Part shown: positions 5,673 to 19,960 of the stretch, piece after piece
Numbering within the stretch: the first letter of the stretch is position 1
How the letters are laid out: every line of letters begins with the position of its first letter
Source of the DNA: Candidatus Enterousia intestinigallinarum
GTDB lineage: Bacteria; Pseudomonadota; Alphaproteobacteria; Rs-D84
DNA: 64,000 nucleotides
Reading direction: 5' to 3'
Assembly (NCBI GenBank): GCA_018716885.1
Contig: DVJI01000012.1
Coordinates: 175,065 to 239,064, forward strand
Notes under the pieces: model-generated
Seen by the model: only the letters and a program-made list of their open reading frames with translations
What the model was told of the DNA's origin: nothing
Databases searched by the model: none
Position numbers and translations under genes: made by a program

Positions 5673-5700
5673 GGTTTATTTTCGGCATTTATTTGATTCT

Positions 5701-5730
5701 ATTTTACCCCAATTTCCACGCCCACGTCAA
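5701..5730 (-). promoter_or_regulatory. promoter TTGACG-18-TAAAAT pointing into cassette 2
   Basis: Same hexamers and GAAATTGGGG spacer end as at 60567-60596. Confidence 0.6.
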
Positions 5731-5814
5731 TTATATTTTTAACATTTTACCCCACCTCACCATGGACAACTTTTTCATCTTGCTTTGCTCAGACACACGC
5801 GGTAACATAATTTT

Positions 5815-6059
5815 GTCGACGGGTGTTCCGTCGATGGGGTGTGGAAACCTCTGCCTAAGCGTCTGAATATAAAAACGCAATGCGCCAAAATGTGCGCACG
5901 TTTTGCAGTATTACGACGAAAAACAAATCTCCTGATTTTCGGGTCAGGAGGGTCGCGAAATACCCAATACGCGGCACAATTCTTAGGATTGTTTCCAACC
6001 TCCTGACCACCAAAGATTTGGTGGTTTTTTGTTTCAACAAAAAATCAGGAGATTGAACT
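5815..6059 (+). ncRNA. c4/CI-like structured leader (antisense-attenuator), copy A
   Basis: Homologous to 14149-14378 and 19764-19960. 5' hairpin, GGAAAC/GTTTCC and CCTAAG/CTTAGG complementary boxes, GGTCAGGAGG/CCTCCTGACC stem, ACCACC/GGTGGT+T terminator; promoter TTGCTT-17-TAACAT at 5780-5808. Confidence 0.65.
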
Positions 6060-6665
6060 ATGAAACATTTTTTACCCTTACTTACCGTCGCCACAATTTC
6101 GGCCGCGTCAGTCATATCTAATGCGTCAGGTATCGTCACCGCCTGTGTTGGAACCCCTGTGTGCCCCACTGGGGCGGGAACCTGTGTGATACTCCGAGCG
6201 CAGGAGCCAACGTGTACATTAGGCGTGATGAGATACTATGACACAACTGGAATATTCTCGTGCAGTCGTTGCGAAACAGGATACGAGCTGACTCAACAAA
6301 GAGCCACTGTTCCAAACTGCTCAAACGAAATATTGTTTAATGTGTGTCGCAAATCTTGTGACGGCACGTGCAGCGATTGTACAACATCGGCCTGGACGGC
6401 CGGCAATACCGGATATCAAAAACGCACATACGCCAGTTGCAATACGGCAACCTGTGTATGCACAAAAAGAACTCAATACCGGTGTGCCGCTGGATATTAT
6501 GGCACATCCAGCAATGGTACGTCCGGGTGCAGCCGCTGTCCCAGTAACGGTTCATCCACTGCGGGCGCAACGGCAATCACGTCGTGTTATTTGCCGTCCG
6601 GCACCACCGGCAGCGACAGTACCGGTTCATATACATATACGTCTAATTGTTATTACAGTAACTAG
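6060..6665 (+). CDS. Cys-rich secreted protein
   Basis: Signal peptide, CAAGYYG/CSRCP motifs, C-terminal SCYLPSG...DSTGSY...CYY. Confidence 0.85.
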   Translation: MKHFLPLLTVATISAASVISNASGIVTACVGTPVCPTGAGTCVILRAQEPTCTLGVMRYYDTTGIFSCSRCETGYELTQQRATVPNCSNEILFNVCRKSCDGTCSDCTTSAWTAGNTGYQKRTYASCNTATCVCTKRTQYRCAAGYYGTSSNGTSGCSRCPSNGSSTAGATAITSCYLPSGTTGSDSTGSYTYTSNCYYSN

Positions 6666-6696: not shown

Positions 6697-9600
6697 TCAG
6701 AACCGATACGATCCTGTTACCTTTATATTATGCAACTGTATCGCGTCATTATATTGATAACGATAATCGATACCGAACTGCAGCCCCACCGCTGACAAGA
6801 ATTCGACGCCGCCACCGATATTAGCCCACAGCGGGTCAATATCAACATCATACTTGGTGTATGTATGTGCCGGTGCGAATTTGTACTTTACGAAGTCCGG
6901 CGCGCCCAACACATCGTATTCAACCCCAATCGACGCATACGGGCGAATCTGGAACCAGGCCGACGGATATATACGCTTTTGTGCAATCAACGAATAACCC
7001 GGTGTCAAAATCAGATATCCATCGGATTGCATATCCATATAATCCTGGCCGGCGGCGTGTTCGGTAACATCAAATCCGAAATTATATCCGACACGCGCAT
7101 ACGCATTGCCGACAATGTACTGATTCAACCAGTCGTGCAGCAAACCCCATTCACTGATAAAGCTGAACGCACTGCCACTGCCGTCGATATGCGACATAAA
7201 TGTCTGGTCGCGTGCGGTATCCAACAAATGGATATCCAGGAACGCGTTTCCATACAGACGCGTCTTTTCGCCCAGAATCTTCATCAAATACCCGCCCAGG
7301 CCGATATTCAAATCATCAACCGTCACATCAACCGTTCCCAACAGCGACTTTCCCGGCAGATACCCCAGTTCAACCGCATCGGAATTATCACTGGACGAAT
7401 TGGATACGCGCGCGGTCAATCCCAGAATCAACGTTTCGGAATCCTGCCAGTCAAAACCGCCGGCAATGCTAAAACGATTACCCTTGGCACGTTTGCCGTC
7501 GGATACGTCCTGGCTAAACATACCGTAATCCGCATCCAACCAGGCCTTTTTCAAATTACGGTTACGATTCCAAATGAATTCGTCGAACATACGGTCTTCG
7601 AAATCACGGAAATTGGTGTGTTCGTTTAACGAAATGTTACCCGCAATTTGTTCCAATTCACGTGCCTGGAACAGACGGCTGAACCGCGCCAATGGATCAC
7701 GTTCACCAGTCATATTATAGTATTCCATACGGTCATACAGTTCATTTGCCATTGTCGCAAAGTTTGTTCCGCGGAATATTTCCGGAATCAATTCAATCGG
7801 CGTATCGTTATAGAATTTTGTATTCAACAACTGACCCGCAATCAAATTGTCCAATGCACCGGCGGAGACATATTCGCCCGTCGTATGATCGGCAACTTCG
7901 GCAACAATCGGCTGAATCTTAAATACTTCAACCGGCCCACCGAAGCGTGGATCAAACACGATATACAAACTGTCTGCGACACCGTCACCGTCCGTATCCC
8001 GTTCCGACAGATATATCGGCAAATCAGAATCGGTTCCATTAAACGCATCAGACGGACGCAATGTATCGGCATAGTCAATGCAAATCGAACCGTCGCCATT
8101 ACAGAACTTTACATCCAAATTGCGCAGTTTATCAAAGCCATCCGAAACATCGATACCCTCTTCTGCGTGCAGCAACCAAATCGCCGTACCGGTATCAACG
8201 GTGTCAAACAGCGTTATCCCAACCTGTGGCTGTGACGCAGCTGAACCATTCACAACACCGGAAACATTTGAAACAAATTTTTCCCCAACGGTAATCATCG
8301 CGGCACCACCAGCGGCATTTGTTATTTCGCCAACTTTGTTGTCGCCGGTAACCTCAACCGTGGACCAATAATTTTGTTTTGATGTATTGCCGGTACCCTC
8401 TTCGTCATACGGCATAATGGCCGCCCACAGGTCGCTGTCATTATTAAACGTATATGTTCCCTTGATATCCAAGCGTTTCAGTCCCCAGAAATCAACCCCG
8501 CCGGAAACATTTCCGTCGATTGTTGCATCAATCCAGGAATCGGGACTGGCCGGATTTTTGGCAAAGCGCAAATCCAACGCGGTCACATCACCCGCAACGT
8601 TTATATCACTGGCATTTATTTGCATACGCCCAGAAACCTGATTTACGCCGGCGACATTAAATTCAGATGCGGTAATTGTATAATCGTCAGAATCAACATT
8701 TACCTCGCCCGCGGAAAGGGTCCCTAAATAATTCTGGTACAGCACGGTATTCTGTGTTGTGAACACGCCATCCGTGGTCAATCCAGCCCCCATCAGTGTT
8801 ATAGTCCCCGCACCCCCCACGGCAAACGTATCAACCGTTGTCACGCCTGCACCGGAATCCAGTGTCAAATTGCCGGTATTTGTAACCTGGGCCAACGTAA
8901 TACCATTATCACTGTGCAGCGCCAATGTGCCGTTATTATCCAAATTAGTTGCGGTAATACCGTCGCCCCCCATATTCAGTTCGGCATCTGTTGCAACCGT
9001 TATATTGCCACCAACTGTAATTGGGCCAGCCACTTCAAACAATGCACTGCCCGCCGTCGCATCATAATTTCCGGTAATGGTAAGCGATTCGGCCGCAAAT
9101 GTCGTATCTGTTGCCAGTAAATTTAATGCCCCGGCCTGCGTGCCCTGTGAAACGTCACCAGTGACAACAACATTTGTCGCGGCAACATTAGCAGTCGCAT
9201 CCGAATCAATATTTACAAATGCACCATTTGCAATATTCAGGCCGCCTATTTGAATATTCGGCAATCCCGTACCATTTGCAGTAATGTTCAGTGTTCCAGA
9301 ATTGGCCATAACATTGCCCATAACCACACGCTGATCCGCGGTCAGGGTTGCTGTTCCAGAATTTGTAACATCACCCAGTGTGATATTTTGCGCGTTTGCA
9401 TTTAATGTACCGGCCGTCAAAACCGCGCCACCAACCGTAACAGCTGACTTTTCCGCGATCAGCTTCAATGTACGCCCAGTGCCCAAATCCAACGCGCCAC
9501 CAATTTCAACCTGAGCCGTATCGGATTTTAACGTTAAATTGGTTGTATCCGCTTCGACAATCAGGCCGTTGTCTGGTTTGTCGGTCAATCCAGTTGCCCC

Positions 9601-11700
9601 GAACCACAAACCATCGGCAAAATCTATTGCACCCTTTGTGGCGGTTATCTGCGTGCCGCGCGCGACCAAGGTACTGCCCGCGCCAACATTCAACGAACCA
9701 ACATTTGCATCATCTGATACAATCTCTATCGTGGCGCCGCCTGTTGCACTCATATCGCCCGCCACTGTCAGTTGGTTTGACGCACTGCCACCAAACACCA
9801 GTTTGTTATTCGCGCCACTGGCCGTAACCGATTCGCCAATCTCGATTATATTCGCAACAAACGTCGCACTACGTGAACCGGCCGATGTCGCCAAAACAGA
9901 GCCGTCAATCTTGATATTGCCGTTTGTCGACGTCATAACAAAGCCCTGACTTCCAGTCGCCGCAATGTTGACATTGCCATTGCCAGACGCAGCAACATCG
10001 CTTAGCGTCATATCGCCGTTTATTTGTATTGTCTGGCCCGCGGTCAGTGAATGCGTTGACCCGTCAATATTCATCGCACCGTCGCCGGTAACATTTATCG
10101 CCCCGTCAACATTGACACCACCAATCAACGCGGTTAAATCAACCACGCCACCAGAAACATCAATCGCACCAATTTGCAAATCACTGCCGTCAGTGTCAGA
10201 ACCGTCAATTATAGTTGAACCGGCCAGATTAGACAGCGTGCCGCCGATGACAATATCCTTGGCATTTATAAGTGTATTTCCGGAAACATTTGTAACATTG
10301 CCAGAAATATTTATTTCACCAATATCGTTCGTCAGTGACGTAATATCCAATTCACCGCCATCATTTGAAACATTTGCTAATTCAACGCGTGTTCCGTTCA
10401 ACGACATAGTCCCACGATTGGACACGTCACCCTGAACCTGCAAAACCGCCGCCGAGTGTATATCGGTATCAGAGCCCTCGAACCCTTCGACACCACCGGA
10501 AATAACGATACCGTCACCGTCGATTTCGGTTGCGGTCATCACCAATTTATTACCACGGTTTGTTACAGAATCGGCGGTAATCGCCTGGGCTGTAATGGTC
10601 ATATTGGCGTTTTCATTATATTGCTGCGTATCAGAATTTATCAGTCCATTTATAACATCAGCGGCAATATTCAAACTGTCGTTTGTTATGTTCAACGTGA
10701 ACTGATTTAACTTATTTGAAAATACATTCAGCCATCTGTCCGTATTTGCACCTGACCCAAATGTCAGCTTACCAGTCGTCAGTGAAAATGTATTATCAAT
10801 CCCCATTGCACTGATATCAAACCCATATTCCAGATTTGTAGTACCAGTTACATTTATGGTCAAATTTCCACTGTTCACAAACGATGCCTCGTTCGTGTTG
10901 CCGCCGGACACGGTCAGATTATCGGCATTCAAAACCATATTGCTGGTGGCGGAATCGTTTTTAACGGTACCACTGACAGTAATATCCCCACCGGCCGTTA
11001 TATTCATTGTTCCACTGGAATTATAAATATTTCCGGCCTTCAGTGTTCCACCGGTTGTAATCGTCATATTTCCGGCACCATCGGTGTTTTCTATATCGCC
11101 ACCGGCCACATCAATAGATTTATCCGCCGAAATTTGCGTTGTTCCGTTTCCAGAATTATGAAAACCACCCATCTTCAACGCAACGTCATCACCAGTCAAC
11201 GCACCAGCAACATCCAAAACCGTATCGCCCCCGGTAACATTTATTGCACCGGTCTGCATAGTTTTGGCCGTAACCGACAGGCCGTTCGCGGCGGCGATAC
11301 TGCCGTCAACCTTGAACAGGTCCGCATCACGCACGGTCAGACGTCCATCGGCGTTTATCGACGTGAACGACATATTTATATTATTGTTTTGTGTATTTTG
11401 CAGATTTAACGAATAGCCGTCGTTAATATACAATGCGCCGCCGGTAATATCCGCATAAGACGTTATTGTAAAATTATCACGAATAATATTCGTGCCAGCA
11501 TACAGCGTATTCGGTTCCAATGGACTGGGGATGTCAACACCGATATTCATCCCAACAACATTAATTCCGTCACTGGCGACATAGCCGTACGAATTATCGC
11601 CACTTATGCTACCCGCGCCAATCACGCCGCCGGTAAAGGGTGCCGCCTGTACCCCCAGCGGAGCCAGGCACAACATAAAAAATATTGTCTTTTTCATCAT
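6697..11700 (-). CDS. large autotransporter-like surface protein (Gly/Asn/Thr-rich beta-helical passenger, C-terminal beta-barrel)
   Basis: 1667 aa, signal peptide, repetitive G/N/T-rich passenger, amphipathic C-terminal strands ending YRF. Confidence 0.8.
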   Translation of the reverse strand: MMKKTIFFMLCLAPLGVQAAPFTGGVIGAGSISGDNSYGYVASDGINVVGMNIGVDIPSPLEPNTLYAGTNIIRDNFTITSYADITGGALYINDGYSLNLQNTQNNNINMSFTSINADGRLTVRDADLFKVDGSIAAANGLSVTAKTMQTGAINVTGGDTVLDVAGALTGDDVALKMGGFHNSGNGTTQISADKSIDVAGGDIENTDGAGNMTITTGGTLKAGNIYNSSGTMNITAGGDITVSGTVKNDSATSNMVLNADNLTVSGGNTNEASFVNSGNLTINVTGTTNLEYGFDISAMGIDNTFSLTTGKLTFGSGANTDRWLNVFSNKLNQFTLNITNDSLNIAADVINGLINSDTQQYNENANMTITAQAITADSVTNRGNKLVMTATEIDGDGIVISGGVEGFEGSDTDIHSAAVLQVQGDVSNRGTMSLNGTRVELANVSNDGGELDITSLTNDIGEINISGNVTNVSGNTLINAKDIVIGGTLSNLAGSTIIDGSDTDGSDLQIGAIDVSGGVVDLTALIGGVNVDGAINVTGDGAMNIDGSTHSLTAGQTIQINGDMTLSDVAASGNGNVNIAATGSQGFVMTSTNGNIKIDGSVLATSAGSRSATFVANIIEIGESVTASGANNKLVFGGSASNQLTVAGDMSATGGATIEIVSDDANVGSLNVGAGSTLVARGTQITATKGAIDFADGLWFGATGLTDKPDNGLIVEADTTNLTLKSDTAQVEIGGALDLGTGRTLKLIAEKSAVTVGGAVLTAGTLNANAQNITLGDVTNSGTATLTADQRVVMGNVMANSGTLNITANGTGLPNIQIGGLNIANGAFVNIDSDATANVAATNVVVTGDVSQGTQAGALNLLATDTTFAAESLTITGNYDATAGSALFEVAGPITVGGNITVATDAELNMGGDGITATNLDNNGTLALHSDNGITLAQVTNTGNLTLDSGAGVTTVDTFAVGGAGTITLMGAGLTTDGVFTTQNTVLYQNYLGTLSAGEVNVDSDDYTITASEFNVAGVNQVSGRMQINASDINVAGDVTALDLRFAKNPASPDSWIDATIDGNVSGGVDFWGLKRLDIKGTYTFNNDSDLWAAIMPYDEEGTGNTSKQNYWSTVEVTGDNKVGEITNAAGGAAMITVGEKFVSNVSGVVNGSAASQPQVGITLFDTVDTGTAIWLLHAEEGIDVSDGFDKLRNLDVKFCNGDGSICIDYADTLRPSDAFNGTDSDLPIYLSERDTDGDGVADSLYIVFDPRFGGPVEVFKIQPIVAEVADHTTGEYVSAGALDNLIAGQLLNTKFYNDTPIELIPEIFRGTNFATMANELYDRMEYYNMTGERDPLARFSRLFQARELEQIAGNISLNEHTNFRDFEDRMFDEFIWNRNRNLKKAWLDADYGMFSQDVSDGKRAKGNRFSIAGGFDWQDSETLILGLTARVSNSSSDNSDAVELGYLPGKSLLGTVDVTVDDLNIGLGGYLMKILGEKTRLYGNAFLDIHLLDTARDQTFMSHIDGSGSAFSFISEWGLLHDWLNQYIVGNAYARVGYNFGFDVTEHAAGQDYMDMQSDGYLILTPGYSLIAQKRIYPSAWFQIRPYASIGVEYDVLGAPDFVKYKFAPAHTYTKYDVDIDPLWANIGGGVEFLSAVGLQFGIDYRYQYNDAIQLHNIKVTGSYRF

Positions 11701-13333: not shown

Positions 13334-13714
13334 TTATGGCAATGGTCTAATAACTTGTCCGCCACCTATAACGGGCAAACCACCAGAAACGCCGTCCGTC
13401 ATTGGACACGCCTGGGTAAAAACGTATGAACCGGTCCGGTCGCTGTATGTAGTATTTGCCGGTGCATACATTATGCACGCCCCCGCGGGTGATGATACCA
13501 GACAACTGTCCGCAGTACCGGCAGATACATACCCAGTGGGACACGCACTGTCCGCAATTGTCATATATTCTTCTTCTATTGCTATATAGCCATCTGGGCA
13601 AGATGTAGACGGCGAGCTAACCAATTGTACAGGTGGTTTAACCTGTATCGCCATTGCCGGCATTGTCGCGTACAATGCAAATAAAATCAATATTCGTTTC
13701 ATCGCAATCACCAT
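13334..13714 (-). CDS. small Cys-rich secreted protein (paralog of 19050-19328); start may be 13702
   Basis: PSTSCP.GY....EEYM.IADS.CP.GY.SAGTADSCLVSSPAG.CIMYAP shared with the paralog. Confidence 0.8.
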   Translation of the reverse strand: MVIAMKRILILFALYATMPAMAIQVKPPVQLVSSPSTSCPDGYIAIEEEYMTIADSACPTGYVSAGTADSCLVSSPAGACIMYAPANTTYSDRTGSYVFTQACPMTDGVSGGLPVIGGGQVIRPLP

Positions 13715-14148
13715 CAGTCAGACAGATTGGAAAATAATGCATTCCTAAAATCATCATTAAACGACAAATACCTGGAACAGGTCGCAGAGCACATATCACT
13801 ACTATTTGTCGTATAATATGCATACACCCATTTTGATACGGCTGGGCTTATCATTTTGCACCAGCAATACAATCTATTACTGCTACTGGGTGCAGAATTT
13901 GTTTCTTTTATTGAATCTTTTGTTTCCCCTTCACTTGTACCCCTTGTACTGGATAAACTACCAACAATTTGTACATCCACAGATGTGCCATTCGTTGTAC
14001 ACGTTGCATTTACCACAACATTTCCGCTTGTTCCATCACCAGTATCACACGTTGTATTTGAATTTAATGCCACGCATTTGGTAACGGCGGCGGCCGGCGG
14101 GATTATGGTCACGCAAACTAGGCCGGCAATTAGTAAAGTTTTTTTCAT
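13714..14148 (-). CDS. Cys-rich secreted protein (paralog of 19341-19763)
   Basis: RBS AGGAG, MKKTLLIAG signal peptide, VTKCV.L, YCWCKM.SPAVS.WV, FR.ALFS.LSD. Confidence 0.85.
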   Translation of the reverse strand: MKKTLLIAGLVCVTIIPPAAAVTKCVALNSNTTCDTGDGTSGNVVVNATCTTNGTSVDVQIVGSLSSTRGTSEGETKDSIKETNSAPSSSNRLYCWCKMISPAVSKWVYAYYTTNSSDMCSATCSRYLSFNDDFRNALFSNLSD

Positions 14149-14378
14149 TTTCAAACTCCTGTTTTTTCTGTATGAAAAAACCACCAGTTTTACTTGGTGG
14201 TCAGGAGGTTCGAAACAATTACCAGAATTGTGTCACTTATTTGATATTCGTGACCCTCCTGACCAAAAAATCAGGAGTTTGTTTTTCGTCTTAATAAAAA
14301 TGGCACAATACGCGCCAATATTTATTCCGACGCTGGTACAGAGGTTTCGACACCCCATTGACGGAACACCCGTCAACA
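14149..14378 (-). ncRNA. c4/CI-like structured leader, copy B
   Basis: Homologous to 5815-6059; boxes CGAAAC/GTTTCG and TACCAG/CTGGTA; promoter TTGCAA-17-TAATAT at 14412-14384. Confidence 0.65.
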
Positions 14379-19049: not shown

Positions 19050-19328
19050 TTATTCCAACGGACAGGCGGATGTAAATTCATATGAACCTGTGTCATCTGT
19101 ATATGTTGTATTCGTTGGCGCATACATAATGCACGAACCGGCGGGTGATGACACCAGACAACTGTCCGCCGTACCGGCGGATGTATATCCAGCGGGACAC
19201 GTGCTGTCCGCGATTTCCATATATTCTTCCACCACGGTAACATAACCCGTGGGACACGAAGTGGACGGCGCGGCGGCAAATGCGCCAATCGGCGCAATCG
19301 CCATAATTAAAATAAATATTCGTTTCAT
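19050..19328 (-). CDS. small Cys-rich secreted protein (paralog of 13334-13714)
   Basis: Signal peptide; near-identical core to 13334-13714. Confidence 0.8.
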   Translation of the reverse strand: MKRIFILIMAIAPIGAFAAAPSTSCPTGYVTVVEEYMEIADSTCPAGYTSAGTADSCLVSSPAGSCIMYAPTNTTYTDDTGSYEFTSACPLE

Positions 19329-19340
19329 ATTCGCCCCCGT

Positions 19341-19763
19341 TTAGTCAGATAGTCCACTAAACAGCGCCGACCGGAAAGCGGAGGGGTACCGAGCGTTGGA
19401 CGCACAGTTGTACGCGCAATAGCTCGCGCAACGGCCGGCGGACGTGGAAGAGATGACGAACACCCAAGACGAAACCGCGGGCGAAACCATTTTGCACCAG
19501 CAATATTTGTTATCGTCGATGGTTGAACTGATCGTGACAGATTCGGTTGTTGCACCAATTGAACCACCATTTTGAGAACCGCAAAATGCAACACCCTGAA
19601 TTTCTATACCGCCACAGGTTATTGACCAATTTGACTGATCATACGCACCAGAGTGACTTGTACACGTTGTTGACGACGTTAGTTTTACGCATTTTGTGAC
19701 TGCATACGCTGGTGGAATTGATGCCGCACAAATTATGCCGGCGATTATTAAATGTTTTTTCAT
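19341..19763 (-). CDS. Cys-rich secreted protein (paralog of 13714-14148)
   Basis: RBS AGGAGG, MKKHLIIAG signal peptide, YCWCKMVSPAVSSWV. Confidence 0.85.
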   Translation of the reverse strand: MKKHLIIAGIICAASIPPAYAVTKCVKLTSSTTCTSHSGAYDQSNWSITCGGIEIQGVAFCGSQNGGSIGATTESVTISSTIDDNKYCWCKMVSPAVSSWVFVISSTSAGRCASYCAYNCASNARYPSAFRSALFSGLSD

Positions 19764-19960
19764 TCTAAACCTCCTTTTTTTCATTGCGAATGAAAAAACC
19801 ACCAAAATATTTCAGGTGGTTGGAGGTTCGAAACTATGCAAGATAGTGTTGCTTATTCGATATATTCGCAACCCTCCAACCAAAAGTGGAGGCGATATTT
19901 TATGTCATCTCTGACACTTGCACGGGTTTCGACACCCCATTGATGAAATACTCATCAACG
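19764..19960 (-). ncRNA. c4/CI-like structured leader, copy C
   Basis: Boxes CGAAAC/GTTTCG and TGCAAG/CTTGCA; stem GGTTGGAGG/CCTCCAACC; ACCACC/GGTGGT+T terminator. Confidence 0.65.

Follow-up and report, generated by a model that had tools for sequence, protein, structure and literature searches.

c4/CI-like leaders with covarying address boxes upstream of secreted and envelope protein genes in Candidatus Enterousia intestinigallinarum

Complementary boxes in a repeated leader

Analysis of a 64-kb stretch of the genome of Candidatus Enterousia intestinigallinarum (hereafter the window; 64,000 nucleotides that form a portion of contig 10, C10, of a 919-kb genome that is 98% complete and has a G+C content of 46%) revealed three homologous structured 5' leaders (L1, L2, and L3; Table 1), which belong to a set of 35 credible copies spread over the genome. 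In these leaders, two short upstream boxes (a1 and b1) are complementary to two boxes (a' and b') of a folded core on the same transcript, and this complementarity is far beyond chance. The leaders are probably domesticated and multiplied antisense attenuators of the c4/CI type, each addressed to its own locus, as judged from their sequences.

The copies were collected at two levels of sensitivity. With the L1 leader as query, BLAST retrieved 8–10 copies in the genome. A covariance model of the core and terminator (R1; 90 positions, made from 11 copies) gave 39 matches at E ≤ 1 in a scan of the whole genome. Removal of three antisense echoes of strong hits and of the weakest match (E 0.35) left the 35 credible copies, the eight weakest of which (E 1e-4 to 0.07) are backed by matching boxes of their own. 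This corresponds to one copy per 26 kb, with exactly three inside the window, and means that the leader heads approximately one gene in 25 of this reduced genome.

The unit is approximately 175–230 nt long. A promoter-like pair of motifs is followed by a 5' hairpin (H1), a small hairpin whose loop holds a1, a spacer of 3–7 nt, b1, a further hairpin (H2) that occurs in a long and a short version, an A-rich linker, a segment referred to as the anti-arm, the core, an intrinsic terminator, and a ribosome-binding site (RBS). In the core, a basal stem of 9–10 bp encloses two hairpins (hp1 and hp2); b' lies in the loop of hp2, and a' occupies the 3' joiner and extends 2 nt into the hp2 stem. The terminator stem and the 3' arm of the basal stem have 4 nt in common, and approximately 50–100 nt separate a1/b1 from a'/b'. 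Two unpaired motifs are conserved, namely GGGTGTTCC in the H1 loop and AAUAU..AAUAA in the hp1 loop. An open reading frame (ORF) of at least 40 codons was present downstream of 31 of the 35 copies, and 29 of these 31 ORFs start 16–32 nt past the T-run of the terminator. This leaves no room for a second promoter, so that expression of the gene requires read-through.

The complementarity of the boxes was assessed with an exact test (Watson-Crick pairs only, boxes in the right order with 1–10 nt between them, at least 12 nt in total). Within the genome, 30 of the 35 cognate combinations passed, compared with 50 of 1190 non-cognate combinations and 25 of 700 combinations with shuffled upstream regions. 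Among 29 other genomes, each represented by its best copy, the counts were 28/29 cognate versus 21/812 non-cognate combinations. Furthermore, when loci were selected through protein homology and not through the RNA, a core was found directly upstream in 22 of 30 cases, and the leaders located in this way gave 22/22 cognate versus 30/462 non-cognate combinations. Three of the five failures in the own genome are slight: two copies have a G-U pair in box b (C10:156997 and C13:80746), and a third (C4:16502) falls just below the cut-off with boxes that match by eye. Two other scores were tried and given up. Duplex energies calculated with RNAduplex for the 30-nt b'-a' segment against 148 nt of each upstream region (means of -19.5 kcal/mol for cognate and -14.5 kcal/mol for non-cognate combinations) ranked the cognate region first in only 15 of 35 cases and were too noisy, as long gapped duplexes arise by chance. 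A two-helix score that tolerates G-U pairs (means of 13.1 versus 10.5) was too permissive, with 24% of the non-cognate combinations reaching 12, and the exact test was used instead.

Covariation was examined in an alignment of 22 long-type leaders (eight copies of this genome and 14 from other genomes), on which the pairing statistics below are based. The 13 box pairs are 98.6% paired and contain 84 double-change cells, compared with 22.7 ± 3.8 in shuffled alignments (none of 500 reached 84); in slid controls, pairing was 24–48%. The a1:a' helix is 100% paired with five of seven pairs changed on both sides, and the b1:b' helix is 97% paired with five of six pairs changed on both sides. Similarly, the seven nested helices (H1, a1 hairpin, H2, basal stem, hp1, hp2, and terminator) are 95.5% paired, with compensatory changes in 22 of 39 pairs. 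A preliminary description of the window had named three homologous leaders with a terminator each, boxes and stems that covary copy by copy, and a specificity hexamer of its own for each locus. All three leaders are present at the positions it gave and align with one another, every box that it quoted is there, the terminators of L1 and L2 were found by a scan and that of L3 was recognised by eye, and the covariation of both boxes and stems is borne out by the larger alignment. Each locus does have its own address, yet this consists of two boxes of 5–9 nt each in the exact test, commonly of approximately 7 and 6–7 nt, and not of a hexamer. For 25 of the 31 RNAs tested, the a1..b1 pattern has a single place in the genome, namely its own leader; the remaining six, the boxes of which are short, have 1–66 additional sites.

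The boxes are the most variable part of a conserved scaffold. Indeed, 10 of the 13 box pairs covary, whereas seven of the ten basal-stem pairs and four of the five hp2 pairs never vary. In 24 pairs of paralogous leaders (at least 80% identity, the leaders being 80–95% alike), the boxes differ at 34.7% of their positions compared with 12.9% elsewhere. The closest paralogues (C10:591 and C7:37135) are identical from H1 to the basal stem except at two neighbouring positions of a1 and at the two positions of a' that compensate for them. Among leaders that are at least 75% alike outside the boxes, none of 36 pairs within a genome have both boxes in common, compared with 10 of 118 pairs between genomes. 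For example, L3 and its relatives in two other genomes (L101 and L106) have the same boxes. These patterns are suggestive of boxes that act as addresses under selection against cross-talk.

The genes served are for the greater part host-facing. Twelve copies precede genes for cysteine-rich secreted proteins, nine of which end in a tail resembling ...CP..G.S.AG.T.IT.CY.P.GT.G.D.TG.Y.YT..CYYSN, and eight copies precede members of a second secreted family (MKKHLIIAG...LFSGLSD). Three copies precede small helix-turn-helix (HTH) proteins (HTH_3/HTH_31), four precede small proteins of unknown kind, and one each precedes an outer-membrane beta-barrel, a PAP2 phosphatase, a GT2 glycosyltransferase, and a protein of 1154 amino acids that looks autotransporter-like by eye; the last four copies have no ORF within 140 nt. 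Placement in front of cysteine-rich secreted genes, as first described for the window, thus applies to 12 copies, and the device extends to HTH regulators, the beta-barrel, PAP2, and GT2. This gene set is typical contingency-locus content.

Relationship to c4-type RNAs and distribution

The leaders follow the c4/CI design in that their four boxes occupy the same places as in phage P4, and their cores are most likely distant relatives of sRNA-Xcc1, although the leaders fall short of the score threshold of every family compared. In the P4 sequence (X51522), the Rfam matches comprise C4/CI (74.9 bits) and, upstream of it, c4-a1b1 (44.1 bits) and isrK (60.8 bits). In the Rfam alignments of P4, a hairpin is followed by a small CGGG..CCCG hairpin with GUGAGAA in its loop and then by single-stranded UUCACAGG; in CI, the second hairpin has CCUGUGAA in its loop and the 3' joiner contains UUCUCAC. 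The leaders have the same arrangement. As in C4, the basal stem of their core encloses both hairpins, the second of which displays b' in its loop, and a' falls in the 3' joiner; as in c4-a1b1, the upstream part is made up of a hairpin, a second, small hairpin whose loop carries a1, and b1, and its boxes are complementary to those of the core. Thus, order and placement of all four boxes, the 5' hairpin, the small GGG..CCC hairpin, the 7-nt a1, and a single promoter for both target and antisense are common to the leaders and P4 seqA/CI (clan CL00128). In contrast, a terminator directly follows b1 in P4 and CI has none immediately behind it, whereas H2 of the leaders lacks a U-tract and their terminator stands directly behind the core; a comparison via the isrK alignment shows that H2 of L1 occupies the position of the P4 t1 terminator. 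Furthermore, the leaders lack a seqC-like target and have an extra anti-arm, and approximately 35 chromosomal copies with distinct addresses serve envelope genes, whereas P4 has one copy that serves phage replication genes.

At gathering thresholds, no Rfam family matched the leaders. In relaxed scans of 31 of the 35 copies (11 at E ≤ 10 and 20 at E ≤ 0.05), sRNA-Xcc1 (RF02221) was the sole recurrent family. It matched six of the 31 copies at E < 0.01 over the whole model (49.2 bits in L087, 44.3, 41.2, 39.5, 36.4, and 32.0 bits), all below the gathering score of 53. This RNA occurs in integron cassettes, prophages, and plasmids of Proteobacteria; it lies upstream of symE in integron cassettes of Xanthomonas (bioRxiv 10.1101/2025.06.18.660453) and beside C4 and isrK matches in Xylella (PMC12189769). 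It resembles the leader cores in its basal stem with two inner hairpins and RCC behind the stem, in its location upstream of and codirectional with a protein gene (symE, or an ORF6N gene in an APSE phage), and in the occurrence of several copies in Xylella (PMC12189769, Table 4). In the parts of these sources considered here, upstream a1/b1 boxes, an overlapping terminator, and dozens of orthogonal copies are not described for sRNA-Xcc1.

Two further systems offer parallels. In the isrK-orf45-anrP operon of the Salmonella prophage Gifsy-1, one promoter yields two transcripts, a read-through mRNA and a short RNA that ends at a terminator; the latter, IsrK, acts in trans on the long transcript from the same locus via alternative structures that hide an RBS, and turns translation on (Hershko-Shalev 2016, PMC4825925). 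Its authors liken IsrK to P4 seqA as a structural homologue and describe how pairing of CI with seqA and seqC leads to termination (PMC4825925). A terminator within the 5' leader, 16–32 nt ahead of the start codon in 29 of the 31 copies with an ORF, is likewise seen at the sequence level, so that short and read-through forms would be possible from one promoter. However, IsrK is an a1b1 element with its own terminator that pairs with the downstream orf45 at a single prophage locus, whereas the partner here is the core inside the same leader. The c4 RNA of phages P1 and P7 is a two-box antisense RNA, the box sequences of which set specificity, and is encoded upstream of the genes that it controls in the same operon (immI; c4-icd-ant) (PMC8198154); the leaders are like it in two-box recognition with the specificity in the boxes and in their position upstream of the controlled gene.

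The genomic context differs from that of a phage immunity locus. The window is housekeeping chromosome rather than prophage, as the neighbouring genes are rho, enolase, a CarD-family gene, pyruvate:ferredoxin oxidoreductase, and an OmpA-domain protein, and the genes served by the copies encode envelope, secreted, and small HTH proteins. To our knowledge, leaders of the c4, CI, IsrK, and Xcc1 kinds are phage- and island-borne devices that typically occur in one or a few copies. The idea that a phage-immunity-type switch has been domesticated draws support from the P4 layout, from sRNA-Xcc1 as the nearest family, and from the housekeeping context; the absence of C4 and c4-a1b1 matches and of a second target, both treated below, goes against it.

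Matches of R1 are concentrated in one genus, where the leaders number in the hundreds. They were found in 35 of 36 genomes of the same genus (2–53 each), in nine of 24 genomes of other families of the order (few each), and, weaker, in 11 of 149 genomes outside the genus in a class-wide sample of one genome per genus (1–5 each). These counts show that the core type is sporadic across the Alphaproteobacteria and hugely expanded in this genus. Among the R1 matches from four other alphaproteobacterial genera, Rfam identified no family at E ≤ 0.01 except tRNAs and one Plastid-psbl-rps4, the latter being a weak, unrelated match (30.9 bits, E 0.003) that overlaps a tRNA. Enterousia (order Rs-D84) comprises gut bacteria with genomes below approximately 1 Mb (PMC12306168), and public sequencing runs with window DNA are animal-gut metagenomes, mainly from chicken, and a few metatranscriptomes, represented by assembled contigs of related strains. 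In the parts of the literature on c4-a1b1, sRNA-Xcc1, or Enterousia that were considered here, such leaders are not described, and the terms 'small RNA' and 'cysteine' do not occur in the available text of PMC12306168.

Two observations concern the mobility of the units. Contigs of related strains from metatranscriptome runs skip the whole L1 leader-gene unit (5674–6633) and a region upstream of L2 (14394–14886); other strains may lack these leader-gene units or have different ones in their place, a weak indication as the letters between the contig joints are not known. In addition, two HTH-linked leaders directly adjoin tRNA genes (L082, C9:77363–77750, and L086, C6:15–400) and other copies precede small HTH proteins, and these copies may be remnants of an ancestral mobile-element context of the module.

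Mode of action and alternative explanations

If the leaders function as self-addressed antisense attenuators, a constitutive-looking promoter would drive each of them, in a lineage that adopted the module for chromosomal surface and envelope genes. Most transcripts would end at the terminator, yielding a short RNA, which RNase P may trim at the basal stem. In c4/CI systems, RNase P processes the precursor to a stable RNA of approximately 77–80 nt that acts in trans. The gene for RNase P RNA is present in the genome, and RCC stands behind the basal stem in 32 of the 35 copies (exact RCCA in 13, U at position -1 in 12). The short RNA would find a1/b1 on nascent transcripts, solely those of its own locus, at a time when their a'/b' have yet to be synthesised. 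With a1/b1 held either in trans by the free RNA or in cis by a'/b', the choice between basal stem and terminator, and access to the RBS, would be biased, and the outcome would be a locus-specific feedback loop. The anti-arm can pair with one of two partners, the 5' arm of the basal stem or the RBS; among subfamilies, it co-changes with the 5' arm, as read from the alignment (CTCCAAC/GTTGGAG, CTCCTGC/GCAGGAG, and CCCGAC/GTCGGG).

The predicted folds contain these alternatives. In all 35 copies, the folds with the full basal stem and with the full terminator are -4.8 to +6.7 kcal/mol apart. The fold of the L1 leader is much better than that of shuffled sequences (z -5.7, 0/200 as good). Its minimum-energy fold places the anti-arm on the 5' arm (as a hairpin with 5944–5950), pairs a1/b1 with a'/b' in a nested helix, and puts the 3' arm on the RBS, and its centroid fold contains the basal stem with the anti-arm on the RBS. 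The RBS of the long-type copies is identical over 7 nt (TCAGGAG) to a part of the 5' arm and can therefore be masked by the anti-arm or by the 3' arm. The basal stem itself is made of Shine-Dalgarno-like GGAGG and anti-Shine-Dalgarno-like CCUCC sequences, as seen in the 3' arm of L1 (5999–6008).

The direction of the effect is judged by analogy. Repression as in P4, a homeostatic loop that keeps the gene low, is offered tentatively; activation as in IsrK, which would be bistable, is possible and somewhat more doubtful. The boldest version, RNA-based phase variation, is suggested by the contingency-locus content of the genes served. In that version, the leaders would be RNA-only, self-sustaining ON/OFF switches in which only read-through transcripts fold the core and release the address RNA, favouring read-through at their own locus; it seems unlikely.

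Several results weigh against the leaders being trans-acting attenuators of c4/CI descent. Target and antisense lie on one transcript, so that folding in cis explains all of the covariation equally well. No Hfq (PF17209) or ProQ/FinO (PF04352) gene was found in the 98%-complete genome; therefore, action in trans would be chaperone-independent or use another protein. As to descent, the c4 and c4-a1b1 families to which the preliminary description had pointed were not recovered: on the 31 scanned copies, neither C4 (RF01695, gathering score 45 bits; P4 CI control 74.9 bits) nor c4-a1b1 (RF03163, gathering score 46.7 bits; P4 control 44.1 bits) gave a match, and isrK (RF01394, gathering score 50 bits) gave 14–17 bits at one locus, noise from terminator-like stretches. 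Homology with C4 would rest on the layout and on near-threshold sRNA-Xcc1 scores; R1, too lineage-specific to reach C4, gave CI of phage P4 7.5 bits with filters off. A second target (of the a2/b2 or seqC type) within 200 nt after the terminator was found for one of 35 cognate versus 71 of 1190 non-cognate combinations. The c4 RNA of P1, which is processed by RNase P and for which the names a1/b1 and a2/b2 are used, blocks the icd RBS through a2/b2. Such downstream boxes were not found here, and blocking of the RBS in the manner of P1 therefore does not apply. The basal stem/terminator switch is thermodynamically subtle according to the folding model, because the overlap is only 4 nt and the inner stem persists in the 'terminator' fold. 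The contrast of 0/36 and 10/118 leader pairs with both boxes in common is small and its pairs are not independent. Finally, two copies at contig ends (C5:7529 and C6:75) fail the box test with a mismatched a box and a matching b box.

The latter two copies (L083, C5:7529–7619, and L086, C6:75–165) have their core and downstream gene in common. Their a1 boxes (TCATAAC and TAGTAAC) equal those of other loci (C4:12149 and C13:80746 for the former, C10:255073 for the latter). The mismatch could reflect a hybrid address, cross-regulation, or a repeat artefact at contig ends.

The strongest alternative, itself doubtful, is a structured leader that works in cis only, with a1:a' and b1:b' as intramolecular double-pseudoknot or kissing contacts and with a ligand, a protein, or a physical cue that sets read-through. 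The four boxes do lie on one transcript, some 50–100 nt apart, the minimum-energy fold of L1 already pairs them, the conserved unpaired motifs in the H1 and hp1 loops could be a binding site, and neither a second target elsewhere nor an Hfq or ProQ gene was found. However, the boxes are the most variable part of the scaffold and recent paralogues differ only there, a pattern that one would not expect of a ligand pocket or a purely structural contact but that agrees with selection against cross-talk. Furthermore, no known riboswitch family of Rfam matched, and the layout equals that of P4 seqA/CI, for which action in trans is established (PMC4825925).

It is very unlikely that the leaders are free-standing small RNA genes that merely lie upstream of genes they do not control, with their real targets elsewhere. 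A strong U-tailed terminator does follow directly behind a compact folded domain, and sRNA-Xcc1 is reportedly called a trans-acting small RNA in the title of a study by Chen (2011). Against this stand the distance of 16–32 nt from T-run to start codon in 29 of 31 copies, which leaves no room for a separate promoter, the addresses without another genomic site for 25 of 31 RNAs, and the link between leader and gene, which is kept across genomes in 22 of 30 protein-selected loci. Hardly credible, finally, is a dispersed repeat or mobile cassette without a regulatory role, the similarity being due to recent copying: several copies lie at contig ends (C10:591, C1:187, C6:75, C5:7529, and C8:27453), contigs of related strains differ over the L1 unit (with a joint from 5674 to 6633), and relatives of sRNA-Xcc1 travel in integron cassettes (bioRxiv 10.1101/2025.06.18.660453), yet the units are fixed in their placement and orientation with respect to the start codon, seven helices and both box pairings show extensive compensatory change, related leaders retain the same boxes across species, and paralogues are only 80–95% alike.

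Two candidate elements of the leader were rejected. A leader peptide was considered, as an ATG in GATGGGGTGT opens a frame of 10 codons in L1, but this ATG is not conserved in other copies (GACGGGG, GTGTGGGG, and TTGGGC), sits in the foot of H1, and has no RBS. An antiterminator formed by GGGGTGT and the CCACC arm of the terminator would have only 4 bp, and by eye it does not co-change with the terminator in the GCC and GTC subfamilies.

The leaders are concentrated on host-facing genes, namely the secreted cysteine-rich families, the outer-membrane barrel, the autotransporter-like protein, PAP2, and GT2. The combination of a conserved scaffold with hypervariable, genome-unique addresses suggests that a mechanism of phage immunity can develop into a general, modular, and chaperone-independent form of gene control. 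The leaders may also provide dozens of natural orthogonal RNA address pairs from which the specificity rules of RNA-RNA recognition could be learned or borrowed, and they offer a first concrete hypothesis for surface regulation in uncultured gut bacteria of the Enterousia type. If the unlikely ON/OFF version were true, approximately 30 surface, lipid-A-modifying, glycosyltransferase, and outer-membrane genes would be varied independently and heritably without DNA rearrangement; this would be RNA-encoded phase variation with approximately 35 mutually orthogonal addresses and without Hfq in 0.9 Mb, and a natural lock-and-key library.

Leaders and genes in the window

The features of the three leaders are listed in Table 1. 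Transcription of L1 probably starts near 5815, downstream of a putative promoter. The same arrangement (cTTGC..N17..TAACAT/TATAAT) recurs upstream of other copies, and a consensus promoter scan of the window did not flag the leader promoters. The terminator of L1 shares the final 4 nt of the basal stem, and the two competing folds are 2.5 kcal/mol apart.

Table 1. Features of the leaders L1, L2, and L3 and of their genes (positions in the window)
Feature	Position and sequence	Strand	Evidence
L1 putative promoter	-35 TTGCTT 5780–5785, 17-nt spacer, -10 TAACAT 5803–5808	+	conservation only
L1 5' hairpin H1	5816–5834, 7 bp, 5-nt loop	+	7/7 pairs compensatory, 99.4% paired
L1 small hairpin GGGG..CCTC	5836–5851; a1 TGGAAAC 5842–5848 in loop	+	stem covaries (GGG/CCC, GAGG/CCTC)
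L1 box b1 CCTAAG, single-stranded	5854–5859	+	covariation with b'
L1 long hairpin H2	5860–5918; A-rich linker 5919–5928 after it	+	outer 5 pairs 90% paired
L1 anti-arm CTCCTGA	5929–5935	+	complementary to 5' arm of basal stem and to RBS
L1 C4/sRNA-Xcc1-like core	5942–6008	+	R1 102.7 bits; sRNA-Xcc1 32 bits, E 0.0012
L1 basal stem	5942–5951 with 5999–6008	+	pair counts
L1 hp1	5954–5973	+	pair counts
L1 hp2	stem 5976–5980 with 5988–5992; b' CTTAGG 5982–5987 in loop	+	pair counts
L1 box a' GTTTCCA	5991–5997, 3' joiner	+	covariation with a1
L1 intrinsic terminator	stem 6005–6026, T-run up to 6031	+	consensus terminator scan
L1 RBS TCAGGAG	6045–6051	+	
L1 gene, cysteine-rich secreted protein	6060–6665; 201 amino acids, 19 Cys, C-terminus CYYSN	+	no Pfam family
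L2 leader	14149–14378	-	R1 95.1 bits at C10:189239–189328
L2 boxes	a1 14350–14344, b1 14338–14333, b' 14225–14220, a' 14216–14210	-	
L2 core and terminator	core 14264–14175, terminator 14202–14179	-	terminator scan (terminator)
L2 gene	14148–13714	-	
L3 leader, short type	19764–19960	-	R1 71.6 bits at C10:194857–194945
L3 boxes	a1 19932–19926, b1 19922–19917, b' 19842–19837, a' 19834–19828	-	
L3 core and terminator	core 19881–19793	-	terminator recognised by eye only
L3 gene	19763–19341	-	

On the opposite strand, the hairpin of anti-arm and 5' arm (5929–5950 in L1 and 14256–14277 in L2) has a T-run behind it and was called as a terminator by the scan. This reverse-strand terminator might stop antisense transcription into the leader.

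The genes at 6060–6665 (+), 13714–14148 (-), 19341–19763 (-), and 19050–19328 (-) belong to two paralogous families of cysteine-rich proteins with a signal peptide and no Pfam match. The first family is characterised by the C-terminal tail ...CYLPSGTTGSDSTG.YTYT..CYYSN and the second by MKKHLIIAG...YCWCKM...LFSGLSD. A small cysteine-rich ORF directly follows the L3 gene, and relatives occur several times per genome in metagenome-assembled genomes of the Enterousia type. Elsewhere in the window, an ORF at 6697–11700 (-) encodes a protein of 1667 amino acids that matches no Pfam family at E ≤ 0.01, and related strains have a 21-nt insertion or deletion in it near 11173.

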